From Clostridiales bacterium (GTDB taxonomy: Bacteria; Bacillota; Clostridia; Christensenellales; CAG-138), in NCBI GenBank assembly GCA_009779405.1, contig WREI01000005.1, positions 2,166 through 66,165 on the forward strand: DNA of 64,000 nucleotides, written 5' to 3'. A program made the translations under genes and the position numbers. Below, piece by piece: positions 43,930 to 61,109 of the stretch (its first letter is position 1; the number at the start of each line of letters is the position of its first letter). Under the pieces are notes generated by a model, which ran no database searches, was not told the DNA's origin, and saw only the letters and a program-made list of their open reading frames with translations.

Positions 43930-44307
43930 TTACAAATCAATCTTTTTCCTGAAAATGAAATCCCCGTTATCTAAATCTGCAACGCCGGTGTTCACAAACC
44001 CGAGCCCCTGCCAAAATGGCGTCGCACTGTCCGTGGTGAGTTCGGCGAATTTCGCGCCGCGCGCCTTTTCGCGCGCTTCTATCAGTTCATACAGCAGTTT
44101 ACCATAACCCTGTCCGCGACAGGGCGGCTCCACGCAGAATTCCATGATAAAGAGCTTGCCGTCCTCCGTATAATAGTTGCAATACAGGGCAAAGCCAAGG
44201 GCGGATTGATGGGCGTCCAACAATTGCACGGCGCGGATGGGATTCTCGGCGCGGTCCATCAGCGTCTCGACCGTCGTTTGATATTCCTCCGAAAGCAGAT
44301 AGTCCAA
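43930..44307 (-). CDS. GNAT-family acetyltransferase, possibly N-terminally truncated (start unclear)
   Basis: CRGQGYGKLL motif; frame stays open upstream to ~44415 with no ATG/GTG/TTG before the TTG at 44307. Confidence 0.5.
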   Translation of the reverse strand: MDYLLSEEYQTTVETLMDRAENPIRAVQLLDAHQSALGFALYCNYYTEDGKLFIMEFCVEPPCRGQGYGKLLYELIEAREKARGAKFAELTTDSATPFWQGLGFVNTGVADLDNGDFIFRKKIDL

Positions 44308-44417
44308 AAACTCGGCGGGCAGACCATATAAGTCCTCCCGGAAATAGCGGCGCAGGCGCGCGAAGAACGCGCCGCGCCGATCGCGGGGGAGTTCGGCGAT
44401 ATGTGCGGTTGCGGCTA

Positions 44418-44831
44418 CTATGCTTTCAGATCCGCAAAGCCGACCACCTCACAGCCGCGCGCGCGGATGGCCGCTTCCGCCTGCTCCCTGCAACGGCTGC
44501 CGCCCGTGGCGGAGACGAGACAGAGGGACACGCGCGCGCCCGCGGGCAACAGGGCGATGGCGGCATGGACGGCGGGCGGCATATGCCCCGCCCATACCGG
44601 GGAGAAGATGTGGATATGCTCGTAGGCCGCAAGATCTGCCGCAAGCTCCTCTATCGGCCAAGCCTTGCCGCGCAGGGCGGCGGCGACGCCCGCCGTGAAT
44701 GCCTTGAGCTTGTTGGGGCGCTTTACATCGCGGATTTCGGCGATATCATCCGCCCCCTCGCGCGACGCGCAGAACTCTGCGCAGGCCTTTGTGTGGCCTG
44801 TGTAGGAATAGTATAGGATCAGATATTTCAT
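44418..44831 (-). CDS. flavodoxin-family protein
   Basis: MKYLILYYSYTGHTK flavodoxin-type N-terminus; start 16 codons inside the ORF. Confidence 0.7.
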   Translation of the reverse strand: MKYLILYYSYTGHTKACAEFCASREGADDIAEIRDVKRPNKLKAFTAGVAAALRGKAWPIEELAADLAAYEHIHIFSPVWAGHMPPAVHAAIALLPAGARVSLCLVSATGGSRCREQAEAAIRARGCEVVGFADLKA

Positions 44832-45370
44832 GTTGTTCCTCCCGTCTTTAGGTGCAATTTTATTTTCTTCACCGCCCAATCATAATGGCTGGCGGTCGCG
44901 GAGATGCAGTATGCGCCAACGCTCGTGCTGCCCGTCCAAGGATAGTGCTGTTTCTCAAAGAGTTCGGCGTCACTCAAGGATTCGATCAGGGCCATAGCCT
45001 GGGCGTGGCTTTCGCGCAGCAGCGCTTCCGCCTGCACATAACTTGTGCCCTGATGCTTTTCCCCAAATTCCACGTTCATATCACCATAGCTCTTCCAGGT
45101 ATGGGGCGCGGGCAGAAAGGGCAGGGGTTCGCCGCGCAGGTTGGATTCCACCCATCGGAGGAGCAAGGAATGCCATTCATAGAGGTGCACCAGCACATCG
45201 CGCAGATTTTTATCGCGCGGCCAGTGCGCTTCCTTTAGCTTTGGATCGTTACCGAAACGGAATTCGGCATCTCGCAGGGCGGGCGGCATAGAAGCAATCA
45301 GGCTCCACATCTTGTTCCATTGCTCGCTTGCGGCGGCGATCAGTTCGGTTTTATTCGTCGGTCGAGGCAT
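44828..45370 (-). CDS. ClbS/DfsB-family four-helix-bundle protein
   Basis: MPRPTNKTELIAAASEQWNKMW.. N-terminus as in ClbS/DUF1706; GGATGG RBS. Confidence 0.7.
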   Translation of the reverse strand: MPRPTNKTELIAAASEQWNKMWSLIASMPPALRDAEFRFGNDPKLKEAHWPRDKNLRDVLVHLYEWHSLLLRWVESNLRGEPLPFLPAPHTWKSYGDMNVEFGEKHQGTSYVQAEALLRESHAQAMALIESLSDAELFEKQHYPWTGSTSVGAYCISATASHYDWAVKKIKLHLKTGGTT

Positions 45371-45384
45371 GGGTTTCCATCCTT

Positions 45385-48132
45385 TCATTTCCTGTTCTTT
45401 CGCCAAGAATAGATGCCGACGGCAAGCCCCGGCAGCGCAATGGCGCCTGCGCCGATCCATACAAACAGGCTGCCGTTCCCGGCGGGCTTTTCGGGGGTCT
45501 CCACTGTGACAACACAGCTTTCGCTATAGTCGCCGTCATTTGTGGTGACGCTGATGACGGTTACACCCGCCGCCTGCGCCGTAACTACGCCGCTCATATC
45601 CACCGTGGCCACGGTGACGTCACCGGATGCCCAGGTCACGGAGACGTCGGTTCCGCCTGTGGACGACACAATGACTGTCAGCGCGGCGCTTTCTCCCACA
45701 AAGAGACGCAGGTGCATCGGGTCCAAGTTCACGCCCGTCACGTGCGCCGCTTCCGCCAAAGTCGTCGCCGTCAGCGCGGATTCCTCGCCATGCCCGGCGG
45801 CATTGACGGCCCGCATCCGGAAGGTATATTCCGTCCCGCTTGAAAGTTCGGTGAAAGTATGTTCGCCCTCTCCGCCCGGTTCCACCCACGCGTCGCCCAT
45901 GGAGACCTGATAGCCAAGAATCTCGCTGCCGCCGTCGTCCTCCGGGGGTTCCCAGCGGATAGTCACAGCATATGCCCCGAGCACGACTGCAAGGTTGCGC
46001 GGCGCGCCGGGCGTGGTATAGACCTCCACCGCGACGGCCTTGCTTGCGACGGTCGCGCTCTTTTCGCCGCTCACGTTGCCGTTGGTGTTGGTTACCTCCA
46101 CATAATAATAGGTCAGGCCCGCGGCGTTTGTGGGCGGATCATATTTGGCCTTGGTCGCGCCGCCGATCTTGCGCCCCTTTGTGTTGCTGTCCGTTTCGCT
46201 CTCATACCACTGATAACTGAGCGTACCCTTGTCGTCTACATCCGCCGTTACGGACAGGGTGAGCTCGTCTCCCAACTCCACCTTGCCGCCCTTGGGCTGC
46301 ACTATGATCTCCGGCGTTTCGGCGTTGACCAAGGCGTTGACCGTGACTTTCGCCGTATTGCTGGCGATGGAAGCCGTTTTATGTCCAGTCGCGTTGTTGT
46401 TGGTGTTCGTCACGATGATGTAATAATAGCTCGTCCCCTCGCGGGCGGTGGAGGGCGTATAGGATGCCTTGGTCGCGCCGCTGATGGCGGTTCCGCCGCT
46501 GTTGCCGTCCTTGCTGTTGCTGTACCACTGATAGGTGAGCGTGCCGCCGTCCGTCACCTCCGCCGCCACCGACAGGGTGATTCCCGCGTTCAGGTGCACG
46601 GTGCCGCCGTTGGGATGGCCCGTGATCTTCGGCGTTTGGGCGTCGATCAGGGCGGCGGGATTCACGATAAGCTTGGCCGCCTTACTGGCAATGGTGGCCG
46701 TTTTCGCGCCGCTTGCGCTGTCGTTGGTGTTGGTGATCGTCACATAATAATAGACAGTCCCGATATTCGCCGTGGAGGGCGCATAGCTTGCCGCGGTCGC
46801 GCCGCTGAGCAGGGTACCGCCGCTGTTGCTCTCGCTGCCGTTGCTGTACCACTGATAGGTGAGCGTGCCGCCGTCGGTCACCTCGGCCATGACCGTCAGG
46901 GTAAAGCTTTCGTTCACCGTCACGGTGCCGCCATTGGGCTGGCCACCAATCTCCGGCGTCTGGGCGTCGACCAAAGCCGGGGCGCTGACCGTGACCTTGG
47001 CCGCGTCGCTGGTGACGGTGGCGCTGTTCGCGCCGATCACGCCGTCATTGGTGTTGGTGATCATCACATAATAATAGACAGTCCCCAAGTCCGCCGTGGG
47101 CGGAGAATAGCTTGCAGCGGTGGCACCGTCAATCGGCGCATCGCTGTACCATTGATAGCTGAGCGTACCGCCGTCCGACACTTCGGCCACAACCGATAGC
47201 GTGACGCTGCCATATTGCTCCACTTCAGCGCCCTTGGGTTGGCCGCTGATCTCCGGTGTCTGGGCGTCCGTGATCGCGCCCACCGTCAGGGTCGCGGTAT
47301 CGGAAACGGCGATACCCGCCATACCCTCTGCCACGCAGCGGAATTGGTTTTCATGTATCGCGTTGCTGACGGCCCGCAGACGCAGGGCGTCCTTGGTCTG
47401 CCCGGCGATATCCTCCCAGGTCGCGCCGCCGTCCACGGAACGCTGCCATTGCAGCGCGGGCGCGGGGGCGCCGATAGCCGAGACCGAGAAGACGATATCC
47501 TGCCCCACCGCCGCGCTTTGGCTCTCGGGCTGGACGGAAAAATCCGGCTCCCGGATCGCTCTCACCTTGGAGAAATGCTCGGTAAACCAAGCCTGCTCAT
47601 AGCCCCCGGCAGCCGGATCGGGGACATAGGCGGTGGCATTTACGCCGTCAAGAAGCCTGTCTCCGATGAGGGGGGCATCGTTGCCCGTAAACAGGATGGC
47701 GGAAAGCCGCGTGCAGCCGCTGAACATGGCATCGGGCAGCATGGGCAGGGCGGGTAATTTCACTGCCGTCAGCGAAGTGCAGTCTTGAAACAGGACGCTG
47801 AACTCCTTCCTGTGGCCGCTGAGGTCCAATTCAGTCAAAGCGGTCAGTTCATTGCGGATAAAATCCTCATCCGCGGCGTTCAGCGCAGACTCGTCCGTCA
47901 GAACCAGTTTCGTCACTTCCCGATAGTCGCTGACATAGGCATCCGCCGCCGCCCGCAACCCGCCGGGCTCCACGGCAGAGAGCGTCAGGGTGCCGTTTTC
48001 ATAGCCCGGAAACGACGCGGACCAGGCGGCAAACATGGGCGGGGGCGCGGATACTTGAGGCCCGCAGGCGCAGCCTGCTACGCAGAGCAGCAGGGCCACG
48101 ATAAAGAGTATGGCATATAACTTCTGTTTCAT
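45385..48132 (-). CDS. large cell-surface lipoprotein: BspA-type LRR region, about six tandem Ig-like repeats, FN3, Big_2, C-terminal TM
   Basis: Lipobox LCVAGCACG; repeated ..GGTLTYQWYSN..GATAASY.PST...GT.YYYV.ITNTN.. units about 105 aa apart; FN3-like PGAPRNL..WEPPEDDGG; AGGGAGAG RBS. Confidence 0.8.
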   Translation of the reverse strand: MKQKLYAILFIVALLLCVAGCACGPQVSAPPPMFAAWSASFPGYENGTLTLSAVEPGGLRAAADAYVSDYREVTKLVLTDESALNAADEDFIRNELTALTELDLSGHRKEFSVLFQDCTSLTAVKLPALPMLPDAMFSGCTRLSAILFTGNDAPLIGDRLLDGVNATAYVPDPAAGGYEQAWFTEHFSKVRAIREPDFSVQPESQSAAVGQDIVFSVSAIGAPAPALQWQRSVDGGATWEDIAGQTKDALRLRAVSNAIHENQFRCVAEGMAGIAVSDTATLTVGAITDAQTPEISGQPKGAEVEQYGSVTLSVVAEVSDGGTLSYQWYSDAPIDGATAASYSPPTADLGTVYYYVMITNTNDGVIGANSATVTSDAAKVTVSAPALVDAQTPEIGGQPNGGTVTVNESFTLTVMAEVTDGGTLTYQWYSNGSESNSGGTLLSGATAASYAPSTANIGTVYYYVTITNTNDSASGAKTATIASKAAKLIVNPAALIDAQTPKITGHPNGGTVHLNAGITLSVAAEVTDGGTLTYQWYSNSKDGNSGGTAISGATKASYTPSTAREGTSYYYIIVTNTNNNATGHKTASIASNTAKVTVNALVNAETPEIIVQPKGGKVELGDELTLSVTADVDDKGTLSYQWYESETDSNTKGRKIGGATKAKYDPPTNAAGLTYYYVEVTNTNGNVSGEKSATVASKAVAVEVYTTPGAPRNLAVVLGAYAVTIRWEPPEDDGGSEILGYQVSMGDAWVEPGGEGEHTFTELSSGTEYTFRMRAVNAAGHGEESALTATTLAEAAHVTGVNLDPMHLRLFVGESAALTVIVSSTGGTDVSVTWASGDVTVATVDMSGVVTAQAAGVTVISVTTNDGDYSESCVVTVETPEKPAGNGSLFVWIGAGAIALPGLAVGIYSWRKNRK

Positions 48133-48152
48133 AAGTCTCTCCCTTATGTGTT

Positions 48153-48980
48153 TTATAATTTTTGGCATTCCTCGCAATAATAGACGCTCCCGCCCATATA
48201 GGCCTCTTTCCGGGCCGCACCGCCACAGTTCGGACAGATGAGGAGCTTATTGTTCTTGCTGAGCTTGGTTTTATAGCCGCCCGGATTGCCAAACAGGTCG
48301 CGCTCGGTCTCGCGGCCGCCCAGGTCCGTCATCTCCCGCAAGGTGGCCTTCATAACGTCGAACAGCTCGCGGCGCTCTGCTTCCGAAAGCGTATGCATCT
48401 TGCGCTTGGGGTGGATTTTGGCGTTCAGCAAAATATCTTGCAGCACGCCGTTGCCGAGGCCCGGTATGCGCTGCTCGGTCGCGAGGAAGGCCTTCGCGCT
48501 CATGCGCTCCCCCTTCTCGGCGAACAGGGTTTGGAAGTGGGCGTAGTCGAAGGCGTCCGACAGGGGCGGGACGGCTTGCTTGGAGACCCGGTAATAGAAA
48601 TTCTCGTCCAGCCCGCCCGCGTCGGCAGCCATAATGCCGCCATACATCGCGACCGTGACGACCAGCGCCGCACCGTCCGTAAAGCGCATCAGCAACTGGT
48701 GCTTGTCCGGCACGGCTTCGCCGAGGGCGTAGTAGCGCAGGATGGTGCCGTCGTTGAGACTGAGGATAGCACCCTCCATTTGGAGCTCCACGCGCCCGCC
48801 ATAAGCGTGGGCCATTTCCACCACGCGGCCGGACAGCAGGGCGTCATAGCTCTCCGGTTCCCCGTGATACCAGGTGAATTTGTGGGGGGATGCGGCGGCA
48901 ATGACGCTTTCAATGCGCTTGCCGCGTATGGTTTCGTTCAGTTGCCCGGCCAGGGCGATGGCTTCGGGTAGTTCGAGCAT
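48153..48980 (-). CDS. Fpg/Nei-family DNA glycosylase homologue
   Basis: MLELPEA N-terminus, H2TH region IPGLGNGVLQDIL, C-terminal zinc finger CPNCGG..CEECQ; AAGGAGG RBS. Confidence 0.8.
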   Translation of the reverse strand: MLELPEAIALAGQLNETIRGKRIESVIAAASPHKFTWYHGEPESYDALLSGRVVEMAHAYGGRVELQMEGAILSLNDGTILRYYALGEAVPDKHQLLMRFTDGAALVVTVAMYGGIMAADAGGLDENFYYRVSKQAVPPLSDAFDYAHFQTLFAEKGERMSAKAFLATEQRIPGLGNGVLQDILLNAKIHPKRKMHTLSEAERRELFDVMKATLREMTDLGGRETERDLFGNPGGYKTKLSKNNKLLICPNCGGAARKEAYMGGSVYYCEECQKL

Positions 48981-49012
48981 GGGGGTTGGCCTCCTTGTTG
49001 GTATGGGTTCTG

Positions 49013-49135
49013 TAATGTTCAATGTTCAACGCGCAATGTTCAATGACGGATGAAACCCCCTGTGGGCGTTTCTTTAATCAAAAAGATGCGCAGCATCTCC
49101 ACCATCATTGCGCGTTGAACATTGCATATTATACA
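49013..49135. repeat. composite palindromic element, family D
   Basis: L arm TAATGTTCAATGTTCAACGCGCAATGTTCAATG 49013-49045; hairpins 49052-49072 and 49084-49098 (followed by CCACC); R arm 49106-49135 covers the stop of 49129-49548. Confidence 0.85.
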
Positions 49136-49548
49136 TTAAAGTCTTCACTCTTAAAACCGGCATAGTACCGCCCGCGCGCCGCCGTAAATTTCAACACACA
49201 ATAGTCCGGGTCGCCGACACCCAGCGGATAATACATGGTATCGCCGACTTCCCATATCTCCTCCTTGATGGCGGCGTCCTCCAGCACTTCCATCGTGCCG
49301 ACGAGCTGCACGCCGCGATAAAATCGGCGGTCATAGAAATAGATGGCGGCCTTGGGATTCCCGCGGTACTGCGCCACGCGCCGTGAACTCGTGTTAGTGG
49401 AAAACCAGAACGCGCGTATGCCCTCGCGCTTGCGCGGCGTGAGCATACATTTCAGGTTGGGGAAGCCATCCGCGTCCACAGACGCGATAAAGCAGTGTTT
49501 CTGTTTTTCGATCAGGTTGCCGATGGTTTGGGTGGGGTCGCGTAGCAT
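49129..49548 (-). CDS. pyridoxamine 5'-phosphate oxidase-family (general stress protein 26-like) protein
   Basis: KHCFIASVDADGFPN..FWFSTNTSSRRV..NPKAAIYF pattern. Confidence 0.75.
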   Translation of the reverse strand: MLRDPTQTIGNLIEKQKHCFIASVDADGFPNLKCMLTPRKREGIRAFWFSTNTSSRRVAQYRGNPKAAIYFYDRRFYRGVQLVGTMEVLEDAAIKEEIWEVGDTMYYPLGVGDPDYCVLKFTAARGRYYAGFKSEDFNV

Positions 49549-49591
49549 GGGGGTGTCCTCCTATTTGGTTTGGCTGGCGGGGATGGGAATG

Positions 49592-49704
49592 GTGAGTTGC
49601 GTGAAGAGTGAAGAGTGAAGAGTTGCGGTAGGAATCGCAAGCGATTCCAAATTTAAATTAGAAATTCCTGCGGAATTTCTGCCTTAACTCTTAACTCTTC
49701 ACTC
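49592..49704. repeat. composite palindromic element, family A
   Basis: L arm 49592-49628; GGT+AGGAATCGCAAGCGATTCC 49627-49648; AGAAATTCCTGCGGAATTTCT+GCC 49660-49683; R arm 49681-49704. Confidence 0.9.
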
Positions 49705-50401
49705 AAAACAACTTCCTCTCCCCCTTAATATCAATACCGCATTCCCGCGCAACACTGCTCTGCTTGAACGGATTGATTTTCAGCACTTCGCCGTCCTTAC
49801 GGAAGAAGGAGCCCGTGTTTTTGAACCAGAAGGTTTTACCTGCGGCTGCGCATTGCTCGCGGATTTGCAGTACCCAGTCATAGTCGCAGACGCGCGCTTC
49901 GCGGCCGCTTTCGCCGCCGACTGTGACGTGTTCCACGCCTTGCAGATAGGGCGTCAAATCAATCGGCCCCAGCAACGGCCCACAGGCGATAAAGCGGCGG
50001 CGGATGGGGAATGAAAGAAACAGGGGCAGGCGTTGATCGGCGATTGCCTGATTCTCCACGGTGCAGCCGAGGTTCACGTTTTCATAGCCATCGCCCCAGT
50101 CGGCGGGCAGGGAGACGGGGAAGCGGTCTATGCGCTTGGTCAGGATAAGGAATTCCAAATCCGGGCGCGCGCGCATCATCGCCCAGGCCTCGGCGCGCCA
50201 CGCGTCCGCTTCGGAAAGAAAGAAGTCCGTGGCAAAGCAGGTGGCGACGATCTTACCGCTTACAATCCGTAAGGGCTTGTCAAACTCGCCGGTCTTGACA
50301 ATCTCGTTCTGCCCATAGCGCTTGCTGTAAGATCCGTAGAAATAGCAATATTTACAGCCCTCGCTGTGCGCATAACAGCCCGTCCACGGCTCCCAGTTCA
50401 T
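49703..50401 (-). CDS. DUF5131 (phage Gp37/Gp68-like) protein
   Basis: MNWEPWTGCYAHSEGCKYCY N-terminus is typical of the family. Confidence 0.7.
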   Translation of the reverse strand: MNWEPWTGCYAHSEGCKYCYFYGSYSKRYGQNEIVKTGEFDKPLRIVSGKIVATCFATDFFLSEADAWRAEAWAMMRARPDLEFLILTKRIDRFPVSLPADWGDGYENVNLGCTVENQAIADQRLPLFLSFPIRRRFIACGPLLGPIDLTPYLQGVEHVTVGGESGREARVCDYDWVLQIREQCAAAGKTFWFKNTGSFFRKDGEVLKINPFKQSSVARECGIDIKGERKLF

Positions 50402-50844
50402 TGCAGTCTCCTCTCCATATACACCTTGTCTTTCAGTACAATACCGTCCTCAATAATCGGCTGCTCGTAGTGCGTCGTAAAATAATCGGGTATCCTGTGC
50501 GTAACCTCAAAGCCCAAGCGCCCGTAAAATCGCAGTATGCCCGACACATCCCCCGTGCCGAGTATCAGCTTGCGCTGGTTGAACCAATAGCGCGCCGCCA
50601 CAAACTCCACCAAGCGAGACGCATAGCCCCGGCGGCGGTAACCGGGGTCGGTGGCGAGGTTTTGGATTTCGATCACCCCGTCGCCCTCAACCGTGACCGC
50701 AATGGCTGCCGCGGGATATTCACCGTCAAACAGCACATACAGCTCCCCGCGCTGCAAATACGCGTCGATTTGGCTCTCCGACTCATCGCCCAAGAGCAAA
50801 AGCGGGAGAAAGGCCTTTTTGTTTGCGGCGATGCGCTCAATCAT
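50398..50844 (-). CDS. GNAT-family N-acetyltransferase
   Basis: IQNLATDPGYRRRGYASRLV motif; start MIERIAANKK overlaps the upstream stop. Confidence 0.7.
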   Translation of the reverse strand: MIERIAANKKAFLPLLLLGDESESQIDAYLQRGELYVLFDGEYPAAAIAVTVEGDGVIEIQNLATDPGYRRRGYASRLVEFVAARYWFNQRKLILGTGDVSGILRFYGRLGFEVTHRIPDYFTTHYEQPIIEDGIVLKDKVYMERRLQ

Positions 50845-51400
50845 TGCCGAAATACTCCCTTGCCAAAATCCCATAATACGCCGCGTCGCAAAACCCAATC
50901 TGATTGTTCCTATCCGCTTCGCGCAGGGTACCCTCGTAACGCAGGCCCGCCTTCTGCATCACCTTGCCGCTGTTCGGGTTGCGTGGGTCGTGGCGGGATT
51001 CGACGCGGTTCACGCCCACTTCTTCAAAGAAAAAGCGCACCAACCGCCGCAGAGCTTCGCTCGCAACGCCCATATGCCACCAAGTTCGACCGATGCAATA
51101 GCCGACATGCACCATGCGCGTGTCTTCGTTTTGGTGCACCGCGGCGATGCTGCCGACAAGCTCGCCGCTTTCCCGGATTTCGATGGCCCAGCTGTAGTGG
51201 TTCGGCTTCTCATAGGCCGCTTCCCATATCGCAAGTATTCTCTGCGTCTCCGCAATATCGCCGTGCGGTTGCCAGGTCAAAAATTTCGTCACCTCCGCGT
51301 CGTTCGCCCAGTTATAGAACATGGCGGGGGCATCCGCCGTTGTGAAACGGCGGAGCGTCAGGCGGGAGGTTTCGAGTTGTACGGTGCCAAGGTGGTGCAT
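50837..51400 (-). CDS. GNAT-family (RimJ/RimL-type) N-acetyltransferase
   Basis: LETSRLTLRRFTTADAPAMF..; GYCIGRTWWHMGVASEAL. Confidence 0.8.
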   Translation of the reverse strand: MHHLGTVQLETSRLTLRRFTTADAPAMFYNWANDAEVTKFLTWQPHGDIAETQRILAIWEAAYEKPNHYSWAIEIRESGELVGSIAAVHQNEDTRMVHVGYCIGRTWWHMGVASEALRRLVRFFFEEVGVNRVESRHDPRNPNSGKVMQKAGLRYEGTLREADRNNQIGFCDAAYYGILAREYFGND

Positions 51401-51417
51401 GGGGGGCTCCTTTGTAC

Positions 51418-51545
51418 AGTGAAGAGTTAAGAGTGAATAGTGAAGAGTTATGGTAGAAATGCCTGCGGCATTTCTGCAACTAAAAGCTTAAATAAAAACA
51501 GCTTGCTGTTTTTACCGCAACTCTTCACTACTCTTCACTCTTCAT
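51418..51545. repeat. composite palindromic element, family A
   Basis: L arm 51418-51453; GGT+AGAAATGCCTGCGGCATTTCT 51452-51475; AAAAACAGCTTGCTGTTTTT+ACC 51494-51516; R arm 51515-51545. Confidence 0.9.
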
Positions 51546-51599
51546 TTAATTATAACAGACTCCGCGCACATATACACGTATTTTTTACAATTCGACACC

Positions 51600-51657
51600 T
51601 TGCATTCGATTTTCGCATATGCTATCATACAAACAGTTGAACAGATGCTCAACTGTT
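51600..51657 (+). promoter_or_regulatory. promoter TTGCAT-17-TATCAT, then operator-like inverted repeat AACAGTTGA-N8-TCAACTGTT (51632-51657) upstream of the P-type ATPase
   Basis: TTGCAT 51600-51605; TATCAT 51623-51628; the 9-bp inverted repeat overlaps the expected transcription start. Confidence 0.6.
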
Positions 51658-51678
51658 GGTATATAGGAGGTTCGGGGT

Positions 51679-53799
51679 ATGAAACGGGAATACAGTTTGG
51701 AGGGCTTGGACTGCTATAACTGCGCGGCCAAGATCGAAAAGCGCGTGGCGGCCTTGCCGGGCGTGCAGGCCGCGACATTGGCCTTTGCCACGGGGCGTTT
51801 GGTTGTGGAGAGCGGGCAGGATTTGAGGAATGAAATTGTACGGATTGTGCATGAACTCGAACCGGGCGTGAAAGTAATAGGTAATAGATGCGACCTCCGC
51901 ACAAGCGCGGAGGGCAGAGAAAGGGCTGACGAGGGACACAGCAGTAAAGCAACTTGGCTCCTGCGCGGCAACGGCCTTCTCTTATTTGTCACCGCCCTGC
52001 TCTTGGAATGGGTCTTCCACTTGGAATGGGCAAGCGCCGCCGTCTGCGTCGCTGCGTATCTGCTCTTGGGCTGGGACGTGCTGTATAAGGCCGGACGCAA
52101 CTTGCTGAAGGGCCACCTGTTAGACGAAAACTTCCTGATGTCGCTTGCCACCATAGGCGCGCTATTCACGCGCAACTTTATCGAAGCCGCGGCGGTGATG
52201 CTCTTCTATCAGGTGGGCGAATATTTTCAGGAGCGGGCCGTGGGCAAATCCAGAAAGTCCATCGCCGCGCTTATGCAATTGCGGCCCGATACGGCCAACT
52301 TGTTGCGGGGCGGGGAGACCCTGCGCGTCGCGCCCGAGACCGTGGCTGTGGGCGAGGAGATTCTCATTCGCCCCGGCGAGCGCGTACCCTTGGACGGCGT
52401 GGTGCTGTCTGGCAGCTCCTTTATGGATCTGTCCGCGCTGACGGGCGAGAGCGTGCCCCGCCGCGCGGGCGAGGGGGACGCCGTGCTCTCTGGTACCGTC
52501 AATCAAAGCGGCGCATTGACTGTGCGCGTCACCAAGCCGTTTGGCGAAAGCACCGCGAGCAAAATCATCGAAATGACCCAAAACGCCGCCTCAAAAAAGG
52601 CGAAGACCGAGCAGTTTATCACCCGCTTTTCGGCGGTCTATACGCCCGTGGTCGTGGGATGCGCGCTGCTGCTGGCCCTGCTGCCGCCGCTGCTGTTGGG
52701 CGGAGGCTGGGGCGATTGGATACACAGGGGGCTTATTTTCCTTGTCATTTCCTGCCCCTGCGCGCTCGTGCTCTCGGTGCCGCTCGGTTTTTTCGGCGGC
52801 ATAGGCGGGGCCGGGCGGCGCGGCATACTGGTCAAGGGCGGGAACTATCTGGAAGCCTTGGAACGCTTAGATATCGCCGTGTTTGATAAGACCGGCACCC
52901 TCACCTACGGGAATTTTGAAGTGACAAAACTGCTTTGCGCGGCGGGCGTGACGGAGGAAGACTTGTTGGAGACTGCCGCAAGGGCCGAGACGCAGAGCAG
53001 CCATCCGATTGCGCAGTCGATTTTGCGGGCATATGGGAAGACCCCGGATGTGAGCGGAAACTATGAGGAGATTGCGGGGCAGGGCGTGCGGGCGGAAGTG
53101 GATGGTTCTGTTATTCTTGTCGGGAATGAGAAGTTAATGTTCAACGCGCAGATGCCACATCCGCACTTGTGCGGATGGCGCAATGCGTATAGGGACGAGG
53201 TCGGAACGCGCGTCTATGTCGCCAGGGACGGCGCATATATAGGCTGCATAGTCGTGGCCGATGCCGTAAAGGCGGAGAGCCGGGCGGCGCTGGCGGCTTT
53301 GAAGGCGCGGGGTGTGCGCAAGACCGTTATACTGACGGGGGATGATGCGGCTGTGGCGCAGGCTGTGGCGGCGGAGTTGGGCGTGGATGAAGTGTGGGCC
53401 GGGTTGCTGCCGCAAGACAAAATGGCGGAGATTGAGCGCCTTTTGGGCGAGAAGCGCCCGGGCGGCACATTGTGCTTTGCGGGGGACGGGATCAACGACG
53501 CGGCGGCGCTGGCGCGGGCGGATATCGGCATCGCCATGGGCGCATTAGGTACGGACGCGGCGATGGAAGCCGCCGACCTCGTATTGATGACGGACGATCC
53601 CACAAAGCTGGCTATTGCCATGGACTTAGCCCGCCGCACCAAGCGCATCGTTTGGCAAAATATCATCTTCGCGCTCACAGTAAAACTCGTCTTCCTCGCC
53701 CTCGGCGCCCTCGGCGTCTCGGGCATGTGGGAAGCGGTGTTTGCGGATGTAGGCGTGTCGTTGTTGGCGGTGTTGAACGCGGCGCGGGCGGGGCGGTAG
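51679..53799 (+). CDS. heavy-metal (Cd/Zn/Co-type) translocating P1B-type ATPase
   Basis: HMA domain GLDCYNCA; CPC; DKTGTLT; SSHP; GDGINDAAAL; GGAGG RBS. Confidence 0.95.
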   Translation: MKREYSLEGLDCYNCAAKIEKRVAALPGVQAATLAFATGRLVVESGQDLRNEIVRIVHELEPGVKVIGNRCDLRTSAEGRERADEGHSSKATWLLRGNGLLLFVTALLLEWVFHLEWASAAVCVAAYLLLGWDVLYKAGRNLLKGHLLDENFLMSLATIGALFTRNFIEAAAVMLFYQVGEYFQERAVGKSRKSIAALMQLRPDTANLLRGGETLRVAPETVAVGEEILIRPGERVPLDGVVLSGSSFMDLSALTGESVPRRAGEGDAVLSGTVNQSGALTVRVTKPFGESTASKIIEMTQNAASKKAKTEQFITRFSAVYTPVVVGCALLLALLPPLLLGGGWGDWIHRGLIFLVISCPCALVLSVPLGFFGGIGGAGRRGILVKGGNYLEALERLDIAVFDKTGTLTYGNFEVTKLLCAAGVTEEDLLETAARAETQSSHPIAQSILRAYGKTPDVSGNYEEIAGQGVRAEVDGSVILVGNEKLMFNAQMPHPHLCGWRNAYRDEVGTRVYVARDGAYIGCIVVADAVKAESRAALAALKARGVRKTVILTGDDAAVAQAVAAELGVDEVWAGLLPQDKMAEIERLLGEKRPGGTLCFAGDGINDAAALARADIGIAMGALGTDAAMEAADLVLMTDDPTKLAIAMDLARRTKRIVWQNIIFALTVKLVFLALGALGVSGMWEAVFADVGVSLLAVLNAARAGR

Positions 53800-53800
53800 A

Positions 53801-53937
53801 AGGAATAGGAAATAATGCAGAATGCAGAGATTTTTACGGAATACAATCCGCAAAAGCTTGATTATGCATATGTTTGCGGAATGTAATCCTTAAAATATGC
53901 TAAGCTTCACTGCCTTCTGCATTATTACTTATTATTT
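53801..53937. repeat. composite palindromic element, family C
   Basis: L arm AGGAATAGGAAATAATGCAGAATGCAGAGA; inner pairing TCCGCAAA/TTTGCGGA; R arm TCACTGCCTTCTGCATTATTACTTATTATTT. Confidence 0.8.
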
Positions 53938-53996
53938 AATTTAATCGTTGACTACTCAACAAATGAATGGTAAACTGCTCCCGTGGAGGTGGCCTT

Positions 53997-54485
53997 ATGG
54001 ACGCTATGAAGGAACAGTTGGTGCAGCTGCTGTTTAAGATCCGCAATCTGGGCGCGTTCGCGACCTCGCGCATGGACGCCTGCCCTGTGGGGGTCGATAT
54101 CAATATGACCGAGTTCCTGTTTATGCAGCAGGTGGCAAACCGGGATACGCGGCGCGGGTTCAGCCTGCAGGATATGCAGAACAATTTTGGGATATCTAAG
54201 TCCGGCGCGTCCAAGATGCTCTCCGCCTTGGAAAAGAAGGGCTGTCTCCTGCGCGATACGGATAAAAAGGATCGCCGCAATCTGGTCGTCACCCTGACCG
54301 AAGCGGGCCTGTTGGCCGTGACACAGCTGAAAGACTACGTGGACCTCGCCATCTCGGAATATATACGCCGCTTGGGCGAGACCGAGCTGTTGCAGGCCAT
54401 CGCGTTGATCACCCGTTTGGAAAAAGAGAGCAACGCGGTGCGGGACGCCGTGCGCACCAAGCGTCTGGAGCCGGGGGTAAATTAA
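53997..54485 (+). CDS. MarR-family transcriptional regulator
   Basis: wHTH ..SLQDMQNNFGISKSGASKMLSALEKKGCLLRDTDKKDRRN; GGAGGTG RBS. Confidence 0.8.
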   Translation: MDAMKEQLVQLLFKIRNLGAFATSRMDACPVGVDINMTEFLFMQQVANRDTRRGFSLQDMQNNFGISKSGASKMLSALEKKGCLLRDTDKKDRRNLVVTLTEAGLLAVTQLKDYVDLAISEYIRRLGETELLQAIALITRLEKESNAVRDAVRTKRLEPGVN

Positions 54486-54490
54486 GACAT

Positions 54491-55630
54491 ATGCGAGTTC
54501 TGATCTTATCGACGGGTACGGGGCAGGGCCACAATTCCGCGGGCTTTGCGGTACAGGAATATCTGCTTGCGCAGGGCGTCGACGCGATTTTTGTCGACGT
54601 GCTGAACACGGGCAACCAAAAGGCGAAATTTATCGCGGGCCTGTATAACGGCATGGTCACGCGCGCGCCTTGGATCTTCGGCGCGCTCTATGCAACGGCG
54701 GAGCGCATACGCGACCCATACAAGCATTCGATCATCTATTGGCTCAACACCCTCTACGCGCGCTCTCTGTATGAACGGATCATGGAATTGCAGCCGGATA
54801 TCATCGTCTGCCCCCACCTGTTCAGTGCGCAGGCGATCACGAACCTGATCCTGAAATTCGGGCTGGATATCCCGACCCTCGGCATTATCACCGATTATAC
54901 CTGCAGCCCCTTCTGGGAGGAGACGCGGCTCACGCACAATATCGTCGCGCACCCCATCGTGTTAGAAGAATCCGTGGCACACGGTATGCCGCGGGAAAGA
55001 CTGTCCTGTCCCGGCATGCCCGTCTCCGCGCGCTTTACGCGCAAGCAGGACAAGGCGGCGGCGCGGGCGGTCTTCGGCATCGAGAAGGAGACGGTTTTCG
55101 CCATCATGGGCGGCAGCATGGGCTATGGGAAGATCCCCGATCTGGCAAAGGCTTTGTTGCGGCGCGCGCCGGACGCACAGGTCGTGGCCGTCTGCGGGAA
55201 CAACGAACGCGTGCTGGAAAAAACCAAGAAGATACCCGGCGTCATCGCGCTGGGCTTTATCGACAACGTGGATATCCTTGTGGACGCCGCGGATCTGCTC
55301 TTAACCAAGCCAGGTGGGCTCTCCTGCTCCGAGGCCATCGCCAAGCGCGTGCCGCTGGTGATCACCCTGCCCATACCCGGCGGCGAAGAGCACAACGCCC
55401 GAGTGATCTCCTCGCTCGGCATGGGCGTTGCCGCGCGCACGGTGGAAGAAGCGGCAGACGCCGCCTGCGCCCTGCTCGCAGACCCTGCCGCGCAGGAAAC
55501 GATGATCGCCGCGCAGGGCTCCCTGTATTGCGCGACCGCTGCAGCGGTGATAGGCCGGCAGGTGATGCGGATGGCATTGCGGCGCGGCACGGAATATGAG
55601 CTGGAGTTGGAGGAGACGGCGCTGGCGTAA
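54491..55630 (+). CDS. GT28-family diacylglycerol glycosyltransferase (MGDG synthase/UgtP-like)
   Basis: MRVLILSTGTGQGHNSAG N-terminus; C-terminal TKPGGLSCSEA motif. Confidence 0.8.
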   Translation: MRVLILSTGTGQGHNSAGFAVQEYLLAQGVDAIFVDVLNTGNQKAKFIAGLYNGMVTRAPWIFGALYATAERIRDPYKHSIIYWLNTLYARSLYERIMELQPDIIVCPHLFSAQAITNLILKFGLDIPTLGIITDYTCSPFWEETRLTHNIVAHPIVLEESVAHGMPRERLSCPGMPVSARFTRKQDKAAARAVFGIEKETVFAIMGGSMGYGKIPDLAKALLRRAPDAQVVAVCGNNERVLEKTKKIPGVIALGFIDNVDILVDAADLLLTKPGGLSCSEAIAKRVPLVITLPIPGGEEHNARVISSLGMGVAARTVEEAADAACALLADPAAQETMIAAQGSLYCATAAAVIGRQVMRMALRRGTEYELELEETALA

Positions 55631-55634
55631 TTAT

Positions 55635-55741
55635 GAGTGAAGAGTTAATAGTGAATAGTTGCGGCAGGAATTCCTGCGGAATTCCCTAACTAAATAAAAA
55701 ATACCGCAGGTATTTTCACCATAACTCTTAACTCTTCACTC
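55635..55741. repeat. composite palindromic element, family A
   Basis: L arm 55635-55664; GGCA+GGAATTCCTGCGGAATTCC 55667-55685; AAAATACCGCAGGTATTTT+CACC 55698-55720; R arm 55719-55741. Confidence 0.9.
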
Positions 55742-55754
55742 GAAAGGAGGGGCC

Positions 55755-56408
55755 ATGCTAAACTGCATAATAATGACCCTCGCGGGCTTCCTCTCGGGCG
55801 CGGTGATGTATGCCTACCTGCTCCCGAAGCTCTTGCGCGGCGTGGACGTGCGCGAACACGGCGAGGACGGGAATCCGGGCAGCATGGGCGCGATTGCCGC
55901 CGTGGGCCTGCCCTTCGGGCTTTTTTGCCTTGCATTGGAAGTATTGAAGGCCGCCGTCCCCGTCTTTATCGCGGCGCAGGTGCTGGATGTATCGGGCTGG
56001 TATTTGCTGCCCGTCGTGCTGGCGCCCGTGCTGGGGCATGCCTATACCCCGTTTCTGAAATTCCGCGGGGGGAAGGCAATTGCCGCCGCATACGGCGCCC
56101 TCTTGGGCATGGTTGGCATCAGCTGGATGCTGCTCTTCTTTATCGGCGCGCTGCTCTTCTTCCAATTCCTCATCGTGCTGCATCCCCATTCCGCCGTCAC
56201 CATCATCGGCTTCGCGGCAGCGGCGCTCTTGTCCCTGCTCTTTGAGCCCGTCTGGGCGCTGAAATTGGCCGCGTTGGGGATCGCAGCCTTGGTCTGCGGC
56301 AAAAACCTGCGCAATCCCAACCGCGGGGCGCACTATGTCTCCGTGGGCGCGCTGCGTTTCACTTGGGAAGAGCGGCGCATTGTATTGAAAAACACGAGAA
56401 AGGCCTGA
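55755..56408 (+). CDS. plsY: glycerol-3-phosphate acyltransferase PlsY-like
   Basis: GNPGSMG and HAYTPFLKFRGGKAIA motifs; AAAGGAGG RBS. Confidence 0.8.
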   Translation: MLNCIIMTLAGFLSGAVMYAYLLPKLLRGVDVREHGEDGNPGSMGAIAAVGLPFGLFCLALEVLKAAVPVFIAAQVLDVSGWYLLPVVLAPVLGHAYTPFLKFRGGKAIAAAYGALLGMVGISWMLLFFIGALLFFQFLIVLHPHSAVTIIGFAAAALLSLLFEPVWALKLAALGIAALVCGKNLRNPNRGAHYVSVGALRFTWEERRIVLKNTRKA

Positions 56409-56410
56409 TT

Positions 56411-57421
56411 ATGAAAAAGAAAAGACCCGAAACAGAACCGAAGCTCACATGGGCGGAAATCAAGGACAATAAGCCGATCGGCCTGTTCATCATCGCGAAC
56501 ATCTACGCGCTGGCATCCGTGCTCGGCATACTCCTCTTTAACGCGTGGCCGGATATGCATTTCATCTGGCGTATCGCGATCGCCGCCGCCGCCGCGACCG
56601 TATTCGTATACCTCACGGGCCTGATCTTTCAAAACGCGTCGGTCTATGATCCCTATTGGAGCGTCGCGCCCCTCGTCGTGTTTTCGGGCTTTGCCGTGCA
56701 CGTCGGCGTGGTCAGCCAAGGCACGCCGCTGCTCCTGCTTGCGGTCTGGTTCTGGGGCCTCAGACTGACCCGCAACTGGGCTTATACGTTCAAAAACCTC
56801 GCCACGCAGGACTGGCGCTATGACAATTTCAAGCAGCGCTTCCCGCGTCTCTATCCGATCATCAGCCTGTTCGGCATACACCTGTTCCCCACCCTCGTCG
56901 TCTATCTTTGCATGCTGCCGGGGATCGCACTGATGCAAAACTATTTCTTCAATATATTTACGGTGTTAGGCTTTGCGGTCTGCGTCGGCGCAACCATCCT
57001 GCAACTGATTGCCGACAGGCAGATGTACCAATTCCGGCGCAAAGACAAGGACAGGCAGGGCATCATCCGCGTGGGCCTGTGGAAGCACGCGCGCCACCCG
57101 AACTATCTGGGCGAAATTCTGATGTGGTGGGGCGTCTACGGCATGATGCTCTCGGTCGCGCCGCGCCTGTGGTTCCTCGGTCTCGGCGCATTGGTCAACA
57201 CGCTGATGTTTCTCTTTATCAGCATCCCCATGGCGGACAAGCGCAACCGCGCAAATAAGCCCGGCTTCGCGGAATACGTGCGCGAGACGAACCACTTGCT
57301 GCCGTTCAGGCTGAAGCGGCAGGTGAAAGGGAGCAGGGGACAGGGGGCAGGGGACAGGGATCAGGAGACCGCCCCCGATCCCGCTGTCTCCGCGCTGCCC
57401 TTTTTGCCCCCGGATCTGTAA
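56411..57421 (+). CDS. DUF1295 (steroid 5-alpha-reductase/ICMT-like) membrane protein with a repeat-derived C-terminal tail
   Basis: GLWKHARHPNYLGEILMWWG motif; the last ~35 codons overlap the GC-rich palindrome 57333-57410. Confidence 0.75.
   Translation: MKKKRPETEPKLTWAEIKDNKPIGLFIIANIYALASVLGILLFNAWPDMHFIWRIAIAAAAATVFVYLTGLIFQNASVYDPYWSVAPLVVFSGFAVHVGVVSQGTPLLLLAVWFWGLRLTRNWAYTFKNLATQDWRYDNFKQRFPRLYPIISLFGIHLFPTLVVYLCMLPGIALMQNYFFNIFTVLGFAVCVGATILQLIADRQMYQFRRKDKDRQGIIRVGLWKHARHPNYLGEILMWWGVYGMMLSVAPRLWFLGLGALVNTLMFLFISIPMADKRNRANKPGFAEYVRETNHLLPFRLKRQVKGSRGQGAGDRDQETAPDPAVSALPFLPPDL
57333..57410. repeat. GC-rich imperfect palindrome built from GGGGACA/GGGGGCA words, inside the 3' end of a CDS
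   Basis: L arm GCAGGGGACAGGGGGCAGGGGACAGGGATC; R arm GATCCCGCTGTCTCCGCGCTGCCCTTTTTGCCCC; pairs only with bulges. Confidence 0.5.
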
Positions 57422-57443
57422 TTGCCTGTATATATCTGATTAT

Positions 57444-57479
57444 GCGTGACGTGCGTGACAACCGTTACATCTGTTACGC
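57444..57479 (+). repeat. 16-bp hairpin from GCGTGAC words, stable only as plus-strand RNA
   Basis: GCGTGACGTGCGTGAC-AACC-GTTACATCTGTTACGC: 14 of 16 pairs including 4 G-U on plus; those 4 become C-A on minus. Confidence 0.6.
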
Positions 57480-57483
57480 TTTG

Positions 57484-57556
57484 TAATGCTCAATGTTCAA
57501 CGCGCAATGTTCAATGTTGGTGGAAACGCCAAGGCGTTTCTCTATTGATTGTATAG
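57484..57556. repeat. composite palindromic element, family D with a degenerate right arm
   Basis: L arm TAATGCTCAATGTTCAACGCGCAATGTTCAATG; GGTG+GAAACGCCAAGGCGTTTC 57523-57540; right side only weakly complementary. Confidence 0.65.
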
Positions 57557-57566
57557 TATACCTGCA

Positions 57567-58816
57567 TCACCCATTAAACCGCAGCGCATCAATCGGCTTA
57601 CACTTCGCCGCCTTGTTTGCGGGGTAGATGCCGAAAACTAAGCCCACAAACAGGGAGAAGCCGAGCGCCATTTCTATGACCGAGAGCGAGATGGCGAGGG
57701 GGATATTCATAAAATATGCGACGACGCGCAGGATCAGCGCGGAGATGCCCAGGCCGAGTCCGCCGCCCAACAGGCAGAGCAGGAGCGCTTCCACGAGGAA
57801 CTGGAAGAGGATATTGCCGCGCGTGGCGCCGATGGCCTTGCGTATGCCTATTTCCCGCGTGCGCTCGGTGACGCTGGTCAGCATCATGTTCATGATCCCG
57901 ATGCCGCCTACCAGGAGCGCGATGCCCGCGATGCCGCCCAGCATCAGCGTGAGGGTCGCCGTCGCTTCGCCCAGCGCGTCTAACACATTGCTCTGGTTAT
58001 AGATCGAATAGTTGCTGTTGTCGCCGCCGCTCATGCCGAACATCGCCATTACATTGGTGCGCATATTGCCCGAACGCCGACGGTTGCTGCCCTCGGAATT
58101 ATCCGGCATCAGATCATCCAGATACGCTTTCAGTTGGGCTTCGGCGTCGTTCACCGAGTCCGAATTGCTCGCCGCGACCGTGAAGCTCGCGACGGCGCGC
58201 GTGCCTGCTATCTTCTGCGCCAGCGTGAAGGGGATGAATATCTGCGAATCGGTGCTGCCCATGGTGCCGCTCTCGTTCTTTTGCAGCACGCCCACCACGG
58301 TATAGGGCAGGCCCGCGATGGTGATCGTCTCGCCCACCGGATTGCTGCCTTCAAACAGCGTGCTCGCGATGTTTGCGCCGATGACGGCGACATAGCTCTC
58401 ATTGTCCAAATCCGCCTGCGTGATAAAGCGGCCCTGTGCCAGCGGCGCGTTCTTGACGGCGGGATAGGCGGGCGTCGTGCCGGATATGGAGCGGGCGTTC
58501 ATCGTATTGCCCATCCATTTCAGCTGGCCGCCGCTGACGTTCTGTGAAGGGGCGACATCGAGCACGACGTCCATCGCGCGGAGATCCGTCTCCAATTTTT
58601 CCAAATCGAGCGGGTTGTCCTCGGTCAGTATGCTCACTTCCAGCACATTGGTGCCTATGCCCTCGATGGTCGTGACGATCTGCCCGGTCGCGCCCTGGCC
58701 GATGGTAATGAGTACGGTGATCGCGACGATGCCGATGATAATGCCCAACACGGTGAGGAAGGAGCGGGTCTTGTTGCCCCAAATGGCCTTGACCGCCATC
58801 TTTGCCGATTGCCAGA

Positions 58817-58820
<4 letters not shown>
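57567..58820 (-). CDS. ABC transporter permease (MacB/FtsX-type)
   Basis: N-terminal TM, large extracytoplasmic domain, C-terminal FtsX-like three TM; operon with the ATPase and adaptor genes. Confidence 0.85.
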
Positions 58821-59496
<676 letters not shown>

Positions 59497-59500
<4 letters not shown>

Positions 59501-61092: not shown

Positions 61093-61109
61093 GTTGCTCT
61101 CCTTTATTT

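Follow-up and report, generated by a model that had tools for sequence, protein, structure and literature searches.

The doublet of short hairpins at positions 49597 to 49705 of the window (the whole stretch of DNA analyzed here, 64 kb in length) raises the question of whether a clostridial genome carries REP elements arranged as REPINs and, if so, what copies them. The initial annotation had described short hairpins with a GGTAG-type tag on their outer side and had taken their inverted pairs for REP/REPIN units. The observation of hairpin and outer tag is real, and all strings quoted for it are found in the window; their positions are as given, apart from two that are shifted by one base (the string beginning with CGGTAG starts at 10107, and the one ending in CTACC ends at 61943).

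The window derives from a poorly sampled lineage of Clostridia, since the named relatives of two of its proteins, from Oscillospiraceae or Clostridia MAGs, are at most 59 to 62% identical (the closest relatives overall reach 87 to 88%). The same contig was recovered in several ENA, JGI, and Logan samples. Positions 1 to 10068 form a phage-like head-gene island with terminase, portal, capsid, and adaptor genes, in which almost every gap holds a heptamer-armed element; the remainder of the window consists of housekeeping genes.

Tagged hairpins between mirrored heptamer arms

The doublet in question consists of two different hairpins, separated by an AT-rich linker, between two arms of tandem heptamers (Table 1). 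The whole element is predicted to fold, both as RNA (−49 kcal/mol, z of −8.3) and as single-stranded DNA (−27.5 kcal/mol, z of −7.4), into a Y shape in which a long arm-arm stem bears the two hairpins. It has many relatives nearby. A word scan followed by inspection revealed 11 full doublets, a remnant consisting of one arm, and two single units made of other words. The intergenic gaps of the 64-kb window contain about 24 tagged hairpin units. In all 11 doublets the tags are on the outside, and the inverted pairing seen initially is thereby confirmed. A second family in the window has (GGAAAGW)n arms.

Table 1. Heptamer-armed elements in the window, with the parts of the doublet at 49597 to 49705
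Position	Strand	Feature	Details
2853-2950	.	Doublet between terminase and portal genes	Left hairpin GAAATGCC-TGC-GGCATTTC (2883-2901), preceded by degenerate tag (GTTGAAG); right unit degenerate
4551-4657	.	Doublet	Hairpins 4574-4592 (AAAATTCC-TGC-GGAATTTT) and 4601-4622 (module a, inverted)
6439-6552	.	Doublet 3′ of capsid gene	Hairpins 6474-6495 (AAGAACCGC-AA-GCGGTTCTT) and 6503-6521
10075-10190	.	Doublet	Hairpins 10112-10129 (a) and 10141-10159 (b); rarer words GTGGAGT/GTGAAGY in both arms
20159-20268	.	Doublet	Hairpins 20182-20204 (c) and 20215-20232 (a); approximately the reverse complement of the 49597 element
28965-29024	-	Single unit, other word	(CAATGTT-type)n words, GGTTGTAG, hairpin AGATGCC-GTC-GGCATCT
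30543-30678	.	Doublet at ecfA1-ecfA2 junction	Hairpins 30573-30592 (e) and 30610-30630 (c-like); additional 10-bp hairpin g (30633-30656)
33107-33130	+	Degenerate single unit after truA	Left arm only, (GTGAAGA)2GTT, without convincing tag or hairpin
49597-49705	.	Doublet in question	Between minus-strand genes 49129-49548 and 49703-50401
49601-49624		Left arm	(GTGAAGA)3GTT
49625-49630		Left tag	GCGGTAG
49631-49648		Hairpin a	GGAATCGC-AA-GCGATTCC
49649-49659		AT-rich linker	AAATTTAAATT
49660-49680		Hairpin c	AGAAATTCC-TGC-GGAATTTCT
49681-49684		Right-side tag	GCC
Up to 49705		Mirrored right arm	TTAACTCTTAACTCTTCACTC
51419-51546	.	Doublet in divergent intergenic region	Hairpins 51455-51475 (b) and 51493-51514 (e, inverted)
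55637-55741	.	Doublet	Hairpins 55667-55685 and 55698-55716 (d)
57490-57545	+	Single unit, other word	(CAATGTT)n, tag GGTGG, hairpin GAAACGCC-AA-GGCGTTTC
61104-61198	.	Doublet	Hairpins 61135-61153 (d) and 61162-61183 (a, inverted)
61832-61991	.	Doublet adjoining canonical terminator	Hairpins 61890-61908 (a) and 61921-61939 (b); additional hairpin g (61865-61888) before a; long right arm of about 7 heptamers

Units with readable boundaries are located either after a stop codon and ahead of the following ribosome-binding site or across a gene end. The doublet at 55637 fills the space from the stop codon of an MGDG-synthase-like gene to the Shine-Dalgarno sequence of plsY, the stop codon of the open reading frame that ends at 4551 comes from the arm of the doublet located there, and the last 6 codons of ecfA1 together with its stop codon are the left arm of the doublet at 30543. 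Indeed, three or more GTKAAKA words place stop codons (TGA, TAG, or TAA) in all three frames.

Unit grammar

The shared grammar is (GTKAAKA)n GTT RYGGTRR, hairpin, AT-rich linker, hairpin, YYACCRYAAC (TMTTMAC)n. The basic unit is polar: a C-poor heptamer array, phase-locked to a GTT-RYGGTRR junction, is followed by a short perfect hairpin and then by the AT-rich linker. The stems measure 7 to 11 bp and the loops 2 to 4 nt (mostly 3 to 4); the hairpin begins 0 to 2 nt into the RR of the tag, its 5′ side is A-rich and its 3′ side T-rich, and 2 to 4 GC pairs stand on top. Doublet partners are spaced 7 to 20 nt apart. Allowing for up to two mismatches, the arm-plus-tag pattern was found 17 times in the window, compared to 0 times in 100 shuffles. 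Perfect hairpins with a stem of at least 7 bp numbered 47 in the window versus 21.7 in Markov controls. Module GGAATCGCAAGCGATTCC occurs at 6 loci and module GAAATKCCTGCGGMATTTC at 9, with about zero expected for each. Since identical modules of 18 to 19 nt recur at many loci, the units are copied DNA.

The conserved 5′ tag withstood the alignment of more copies. Its consensus is RYGGTRR; NNGG is present at 18 of the window's 22 arm ends, where T and then RR mostly come next. Tag variants are GTAG, GTGG, GTGA, and GTAA. In most units the last one or two bases of the tag are also the first pairs of the stem, and the two tags of a doublet pair with each other in the predicted fold; hence, the tag may be just the inner end of the arm stem. 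In a noncircular test with 122 unique pattern matches from all loci, 61% led into a perfect stem of at least 7 bp within 0 to 2 nt, compared to 7% when random genomic sequence and 5% when shuffled sequence was used. As noted initially, the stems vary between copies yet stay paired, with 68 distinct stems among 86 hairpins, nearly all of them perfectly Watson-Crick; mismatches (G-U versus A-C) are too few to tell RNA from DNA. The loops are polar as well: by reading of the alignments, loop orientation matches tag orientation in 17 of 19 units in the window, and over all loci the tag strand carries CTGCG (14), CTTCG (6), CTTTG (4), and CTACG (3), with their complements almost absent.

Left and right partners are usually different modules. 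In the window the combination a+c occurs three times and is the only one to recur, with a+b, b+e, e+c, c+d, d+a, and f+b present once each. Every doublet is a different combination of modules as a whole, and the window holds no near-identical, recently transposed copy of an entire element. Matching of the two arms of an element is visible only in the odd-word doublet at 10075-10190 and in a related locus (L088, see below). For the main family of the window, arm covariation is not demonstrable (0.74 within versus 0.70 between elements) because all copies share one pool of words.

Among short periods of 4 to 12 nt, period 7 is the only one over-represented in the window, with 27 arrays compared to 0 to 7 for each other period, and the words fall into at least four families. 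Among the long simple repeats of prokaryotes, those with heptanucleotide units are also the most frequent (Mrazek 2007, cited in PMC4679880). It is therefore imaginable that heptamer tracts simply grow by replication slippage beside existing hairpins and are mirrored by fold-back repair, with no dedicated function or enzyme; the several different words and the unequal heptamer copy number of the two arms would fit such an origin. However, the arrays keep a constant phase relative to GTT-RYGGT, one 24-nt junction reappears from genome to genome with hairpins after it, and identical hairpin modules at many loci require copying. Furthermore, contigs of the same species that are 99.8 to 100% identical had no indel or other polymorphism in eight elements, and hence the arrays are not hypervariable. 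We consider slippage by itself a most improbable explanation.

Distribution beyond the window

The 24-nt arm-plus-tag pattern was scanned once over GTDB representative genomes and once over JGI metagenomes and yielded 84 and 41 stretches, respectively, where we estimate about one chance match for the genome scan. The heptamer-tag-hairpin unit is present in about 120 public loci, mostly from Clostridia MAGs but also from several other phyla. Among the 80 genome loci listed, about 70 are labeled Clostridia or Bacillota, with GC contents of 25 to 62%; the others are from Sulfurovum and other Campylobacterota, Patescibacteria, Lentisphaeraceae, Verrucomicrobia, Planctomycetaceae, and one cyanobacterium, and additional heptamer arrays were present in several loci from outside the Firmicutes. 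A run of T follows the hairpin in certain low-GC and Sulfurovum loci.

Outside the window, most units (102 of 134) stand alone; direct tandem arrays of units occur at L004, L063, and L066. Single units often start at or just after a stop codon in sense orientation (54 of the 102, versus 23 in the opposite-strand check on the side of the hairpin). In L088, a relative, the arms are built of AGTAATA, TAATGCG, GTGCAGA, GAATAGT, or GTCAATY, and each word is mirrored in its own partner arm; the heptamer word can therefore change while the architecture stays.

In the Oscillospiraceae MAG JAISYX01, heptamer half-units are directly adjoined, at their linker, by classical GTAG REP doublets (GTAGGGGCAGACCTATGTGTCTGCCC and GTAGGGGAYGATGTCCACATCRTCCC), which are identical inverted copies with GTAG on the outside and occur at several loci. 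A GC-rich GTAG hairpin like those of JAISYX01 is located at 21499-21522 of the window.

The pattern scan gave no match in viral contigs, although 8 elements lie in the phage-like head-gene island of the window, and a BLAST search with the element gave none in plasmid and phage collections. No Rfam family covers the elements at gathering or E-value thresholds: at the gathering threshold only RNase P and two tRNAs were found in the window, and the elements themselves matched only sub-threshold miRNA hairpin models. A full-text literature search with the heptamer words returned only unrelated primer-type matches, and the combined heptamer-tag-hairpin architecture was not found described in the literature.

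Gain, loss, and retention

The initial annotation had suggested a comparison of element positions between relatives, and the positions do differ. In the closest sampled relative (Logan SRR26434396, loci L087 and L136, with 87% and 69% protein identity at the compared sites), two orthologous sites are empty: in L087, ecfA1 and ecfA2 abut without the element that the window has at 30543, and in L136 the gap between GT and plsY is 15 nt and lacks the element found in the window at 55637. The 26.4 kb available from this relative contain no heptamer array, compared to 21 arrays in the 64-kb window. A more distant relative (67% EcfA1 identity) does have an element at the same ecfA junction, with different words and the opposite order of modules, which suggests either an independent insertion or strong divergence. 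In general, related genomes differ widely in unit density.

At other sites the units persist. A unit 3′ of queA is kept in five GTDB species, with heptamers and a tag that have changed less than the queA coding sequence; its loop varies freely, and its stem displays a compensatory change from T-A to G-C. Together with the empty sites in the relative, this retained copy indicates that elements are both gained or lost and, at some sites, maintained.

The conservation of the queA unit brings up a host-encoded, cis-acting RNA module that is not mobile at all. Three-frame stops and hairpin would mark gene ends and operon junctions, with a role in termination or uncoupling of translation, in protection of 3′ ends, or in RNase processing; a conserved RNA-binding factor would act as the reader, and spread would come about only by recombination or duplication. 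The compensatory stem change, the sense bias of single units just after stop codons, the presence of the motif in several phyla, and the strong predicted fold are consistent with such a module, and the TAACTGA arrays of other phyla have been proposed to act post-transcriptionally (PMC4679880). It should be said that the queA conservation and the sense bias, which fit a purely host-encoded RNA element as well, count against seeing the units as copied elements. However, an RNA module of the host would hardly be missing throughout the 26 kb of the closest sampled relative, where two orthologous junctions lack it, or differ so widely in density between related genomes. Identical modules stand at unrelated loci in either orientation, even in the divergent promoter region at 51419-51546; the hairpins are not terminator-like in this genome, and none has an Rfam match. 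On balance we regard a purely host-encoded module as unlikely.

Transposition by a DDE enzyme would be a second way to explain patchy distribution among lineages. The elements would then be MITEs, with the heptamer arrays as terminal inverted repeats and the inner hairpins as passengers, and indeed the copies have inverted arms in common, and both arms of any one element in L088 are built of a word particular to it. However, no target-site duplication flanks any of the 11 elements in the window, and none is apparent at the two empty orthologous sites (where the comparison is with a distant relative). The arms are variable in length and unequal between sides, single half-units and direct tandem units occur, a transposase was not found near any copy, and it is the tag with its hairpin, not the tip of the arm, that is conserved. 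An origin as MITEs is, hence, very unlikely.

Search for a copying enzyme

Y1 enzymes are not expected to leave a target-site duplication. Searches by phmmer of the six-frame open reading frames of the window and 131 loci (903 kb in all) with the E. coli RAYT (4ER8) and the TnpA proteins of IS608, ISDra2, and Sulfolobus gave no match to a Y1/RAYT or IS200-type transposase at an E value of ≤10; the sequences of IS608 TnpA and the E. coli RAYT had been checked against the PDB, and phmmer may miss divergent RAYTs. Pfam revealed no transposase in the scanned open reading frames of the window or in open reading frame families that recur near elements: the nine recurrent families obtained by clustering and scanned were all housekeeping (e.g., ABC ATPase, QueA, TilS, RRF, and MatE). 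Precomputed Pfam marks of the genes called on L132, a locus that takes in about 7 kb upstream of the window, include no Y1_Tnp. The same locus encodes, just upstream of the window, a serine resolvase, which was considered as a mobilizer and rejected since it has the architecture of an ordinary resolvase/invertase and not that of the IS607 type. By our own estimate, for a single-copy RAYT and hundreds of units per genome, the 903 kb sampled would be expected to contain the gene only about 0.5 to 2.6 times, and its absence is therefore weak evidence.

This bears directly on the strict REPIN view, according to which doublets replicate as a whole and are mobilized by a RAYT (Y1) encoded once, between copies of these units, somewhere in the unsampled genome. 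The REP grammar with tag-outside dimers, the missing target-site duplications, and the bona fide GTAG REP doublets of the related MAG are all in keeping with it. The remark in the initial annotation that REP/RAYT systems have been described mainly in Proteobacteria is too narrow, considering that tagged REPs are reported in eight phyla (PMC3733652) and group 1 RAYTs in Clostridia (PMC5581495, beyond which we found no literature on RAYTs in Clostridia). However, only RAYTs of groups 2 and 3 are tied to abundant repeats (PMC5581495), no Y1 match was obtained, the heptamer arms have no counterpart in known REPINs, and the doublets join different modules in combinations that vary by site. We judge the strict REPIN view improbable. 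What stands of the REP/REPIN reading is the descriptive grammar, i.e., tag, stem, loop, intergenic location, and tag-outside dimers in high copy number; what does not is the near-identity of the partners.

Comparison with known repeats

E. coli BIMEs are mosaics of several palindromic types and linker motifs, mostly inverted and without target-site duplication. The elements of the window are alike in this: tagged palindromes are located outside genes, within operons or at gene ends, several hairpin types and linkers form mosaics in mostly inverted clusters, and target-site duplications are missing. They differ from E. coli REPs and BIMEs in lacking any sequence similarity, in stems that are AT-rich at the base and carry their GC pairs on top, in the tandem heptamer array on each unit (E. 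coli BIMEs have none), in the clostridial host, and in that a RAYT was not found in 903 kb. A REPIN consists of two near-identical REPs that replicate as one unit around a master sequence, but the hairpins paired here mostly belong to different modules, which makes the pairs mosaics of the BIME kind. With the REPIN-RAYT systems of Pseudomonas and enterobacteria the elements share the inverted geometry, the short spacer, the high copy number, and the long vertical persistence of some copies. The REPIN model does not account for the heptamer arms, for the occurrence of units in several phyla, or for the conservation of one orthologous copy.

In anatomy the units resemble the superfamily of GTAG-tagged REPs (Di Nocera et al. 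2013, PMC3733652). This superfamily consists of palindromic units of 20 to 40 bp with an unpaired GTAG-like motif at one end of the stem, accepts GTGG and GTRG as tag variants, has stems of 6 to 13 bp with loops of 2 to 4 nt, and occurs predominantly as tag-outside (HH) dimers; Firmicutes and Clostridia are not mentioned in the main text of that article. In the window, too, a small, high-copy-number palindromic unit is found outside genes, downstream of coding regions, with stems and loops of matching size, complementary stem changes, and tag-outside dimers. Peculiar to the present units are a tag that is often partly paired, the 7 to 20 nt between partners, and, as a new feature, the heptamer arms.

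For these arms the parallels lie elsewhere. The cyanobacterial STRR, which Mazel et al. reportedly described in 1990, are tandem repeats of heptamers. TAACTGA repeats are known from Beggiatoaceae, Cyanobacteria, and Bacteroidetes, and MacGregor noted their three-frame stop property (PMC4679880). Like the arms, they are intergenic tandem arrays of 7-nt words with several words per genome and stops in all three frames, overlap upstream stop codons or directly precede start codons, and have a patchy phylogenetic spread. The right-arm word TAACTCT differs from TAACTGA at 2 of 7 positions. The likeness is one of description: TAACTGA and STRR repeats are described as plain direct repeats, with one inverted pair and no report of tag and hairpin.

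Pneumococcal BOX elements consist of modules of 45 to 59 nt with a variable number of internal repeats and with ends that pair into a stem. They are likewise modular noncoding repeats of a Gram-positive bacterium, but the repeated module here is a heptamer, BOX has no tagged mini-hairpins, and there is no sequence similarity. Integron attC sites have the core polarity 5′-RYYYAAC...GTTRRRY-3′ and stand in co-oriented cassette arrays. In the elements, GTT comes first and AAC last on either strand, and the neighbors are housekeeping genes and not cassettes; attC was rejected on its core polarity. Intrinsic terminators were rejected for this genome as well: only one inner hairpin (49660-49680, on the minus strand) passed a consensus scan of 44001-64000, and the canonical terminators of that region are located elsewhere (e.g., at 61804-61829, next to the doublet at 61832). 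Chi, the DnaA box, the Haemophilus uptake sequence, and boxes for CodY, Rex, and Spo0A, compared by eye, were dropped, as they agreed just at the variable positions or had the wrong spacing.

A model for spread and retention

Our leading, and still tentative, reading is that the units are non-autonomous, hairpin-directed repeats copied by a putative enzyme, that they are tolerated thanks to arms that stop translation in every frame, and that they are retained as structured, transcribed spacers. In this model, an enzyme that reads the tagged hairpin on one DNA strand would spread the units. A Y1/HUH enzyme of the RAYT kind would be the leading candidate, and the heptamers could be iteron-like binding sites for it, although we are doubtful that the enzyme is a RAYT specifically. 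Inserted units would be transcribed within operons, where the three-frame stops may limit the damage to the upstream gene. Selection would then keep the structure, plausibly as a stabilizer of mRNA 3′ ends or intercistronic regions or as a processing site, much as has been described for E. coli REPs; a role in stabilizing RNA 3′ ends has been proposed for REPs (PMC3733652). Weighing against the model, no Y1 or other transposase was detected in the window, in about 7 kb upstream of it, or in 0.9 Mb of element-bearing loci, no near-identical whole element in the window points to recent transposition, contigs of the same species show no polymorphism, and the tag may be just a part of the arm stem.

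In our reading, the combined heptamer-tag-hairpin repeat is a new variant of REP/BIME-like repeated DNA. A far-reaching extension, to which we give little credence at present, is that heptamer array, GTT-RYGGTRR, and hairpin together define a widespread class of cis-elements in Clostridia, Campylobacterota, Patescibacteria, Lentisphaerota, and other groups. Such a class would link the STRR and TAACTGA repeats to REP hairpins, with iteron-like heptamers and a tagged hairpin that is recognized or cleaved by an HUH-type enzyme or a host factor.

There are practical consequences for MAG quality. The elements break short-read assemblies, with short-read unitigs and Logan contigs ending inside the arms, and they matter for gene calling because they rewrite the 3′ ends of genes such as ecfA1.

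In sum, the biology of REPs, BIMEs, and REPINs rests almost wholly on Proteobacteria, and a dense, modular REP-like system among uncultured Clostridia of the gut, accompanied by classical GTAG REP doublets in a related MAG, widens the range in which such systems should be sought. The heptamer repeats of bacteria have been noticed for decades and left unexplained; they are now given an anatomical partner, the tag with its hairpin, and since the heptamers are phase-locked to this conserved partner, hypotheses on a binding protein or a copying enzyme become testable.

Other repeat families in the window

Besides the GTKAAKA elements, the window holds a second family of heptamer-armed palindromes, in which (GGAAAGW)n arms flank the conserved core TAGAGTRAGCGGAGTATATGRACATAAAATTT; its copies gave sub-threshold miRNA-like matches in Rfam. 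A third type (53800-53940), between a metal P-type ATPase gene and a MarR-like gene, has AATGCAG arms, a word also found in the relative L088, and two inner hairpins (ACGGAATACAATCCGC and GCGGAATGTAATCC). Furthermore, a GGGGACA-type heptamer array (57333-57359) was observed within the long ORF 56363-57421; it may lie within the 3' end of a DUF1295-like gene or just past the true stop of that gene.

A termite-type sample yielded an Oscillospiraceae MAG that carries classical GTAG REP doublets. These doublets are GC-rich and REPIN-like, with identical inverted copies, one with a compensatory CG/TA change, and they immediately adjoin the linker of heptamer half-units. In the window, positions 21499-21522 hold a lone hairpin, GTAGGGGCGCGATATATCGCGCCC, that belongs to the classical GTAG REP type. 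It is located in the 5' region of a HIGH-nucleotidyltransferase gene, and the long ORF called there (20263-21537) is probably over-extended across the hairpin.

Repeat copies, RNA genes and REP doublets (window positions unless a locus is named)
Feature	Position	Strand	Remark
(GGAAAGW)n family	1415-1520		
(GGAAAGW)n family	7340-7459		
(GGAAAGW)n family	8913-8990		
(GGAAAGW)n family	25328-25418		
(GGAAAGW)n family	35383-35476		
(GGAAAGW)n family	35953-36067		hybrid, with an additional GGTA-tagged hairpin
RNase P RNA (class A)	25429-25875	-	family-B element directly adjoining
tRNA-Arg(CCG)	800-876	-	
tRNA-Gly(GCC)	63457-63532	-	
GTAG REP doublets, Oscillospiraceae MAG	L030; L034:5976-6146; L046:2630-2708 and 5192-5268; L057:3765-3888		

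Gene ends, assembly and the phage-like island

The repeats reach into coding sequence. EcfA1 has 279 amino acids in the window versus 273 in the relative lacking the element, and the repeat arm (30543-30561) encodes the final six codons (QLRVNS) and the stop codon. De Bruijn assemblies of this organism are also broken up by the repeats: matching contigs end within heptamer arms, beside the GTT junction (L085 at both ends, L086 at one; window 49620-51447).

Eight repeat elements occupy the intergenic gaps of a compact phage-like head-gene island (window 1-10068), which is directly followed by holB. It encodes a terminase, a P22/SU10-type portal, a capsid protein and an adaptor. A serine resolvase gene and one for an S24/S26 peptidase are found in the adjoining upstream sequence (L132:1-7031); tail genes were not seen in this region. 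Despite these eight elements, a scan of viral contigs with the element pattern gave no match.

A further heptamer array and possible local duplication of the units

A Sulfurovum contig with GTGAAGA-type units also has, at its end, a TGAGTAA heptamer array with about 18 copies of the word (L007:1-129). Downstream of the heptamer-tag-hairpin unit that lies 3' of queA, the 3' end of queA, a stop-codon palindrome and the unit itself appear to be tandemly duplicated in two loci (L069 and L083), which suggests that local duplication is one route by which the units multiply.
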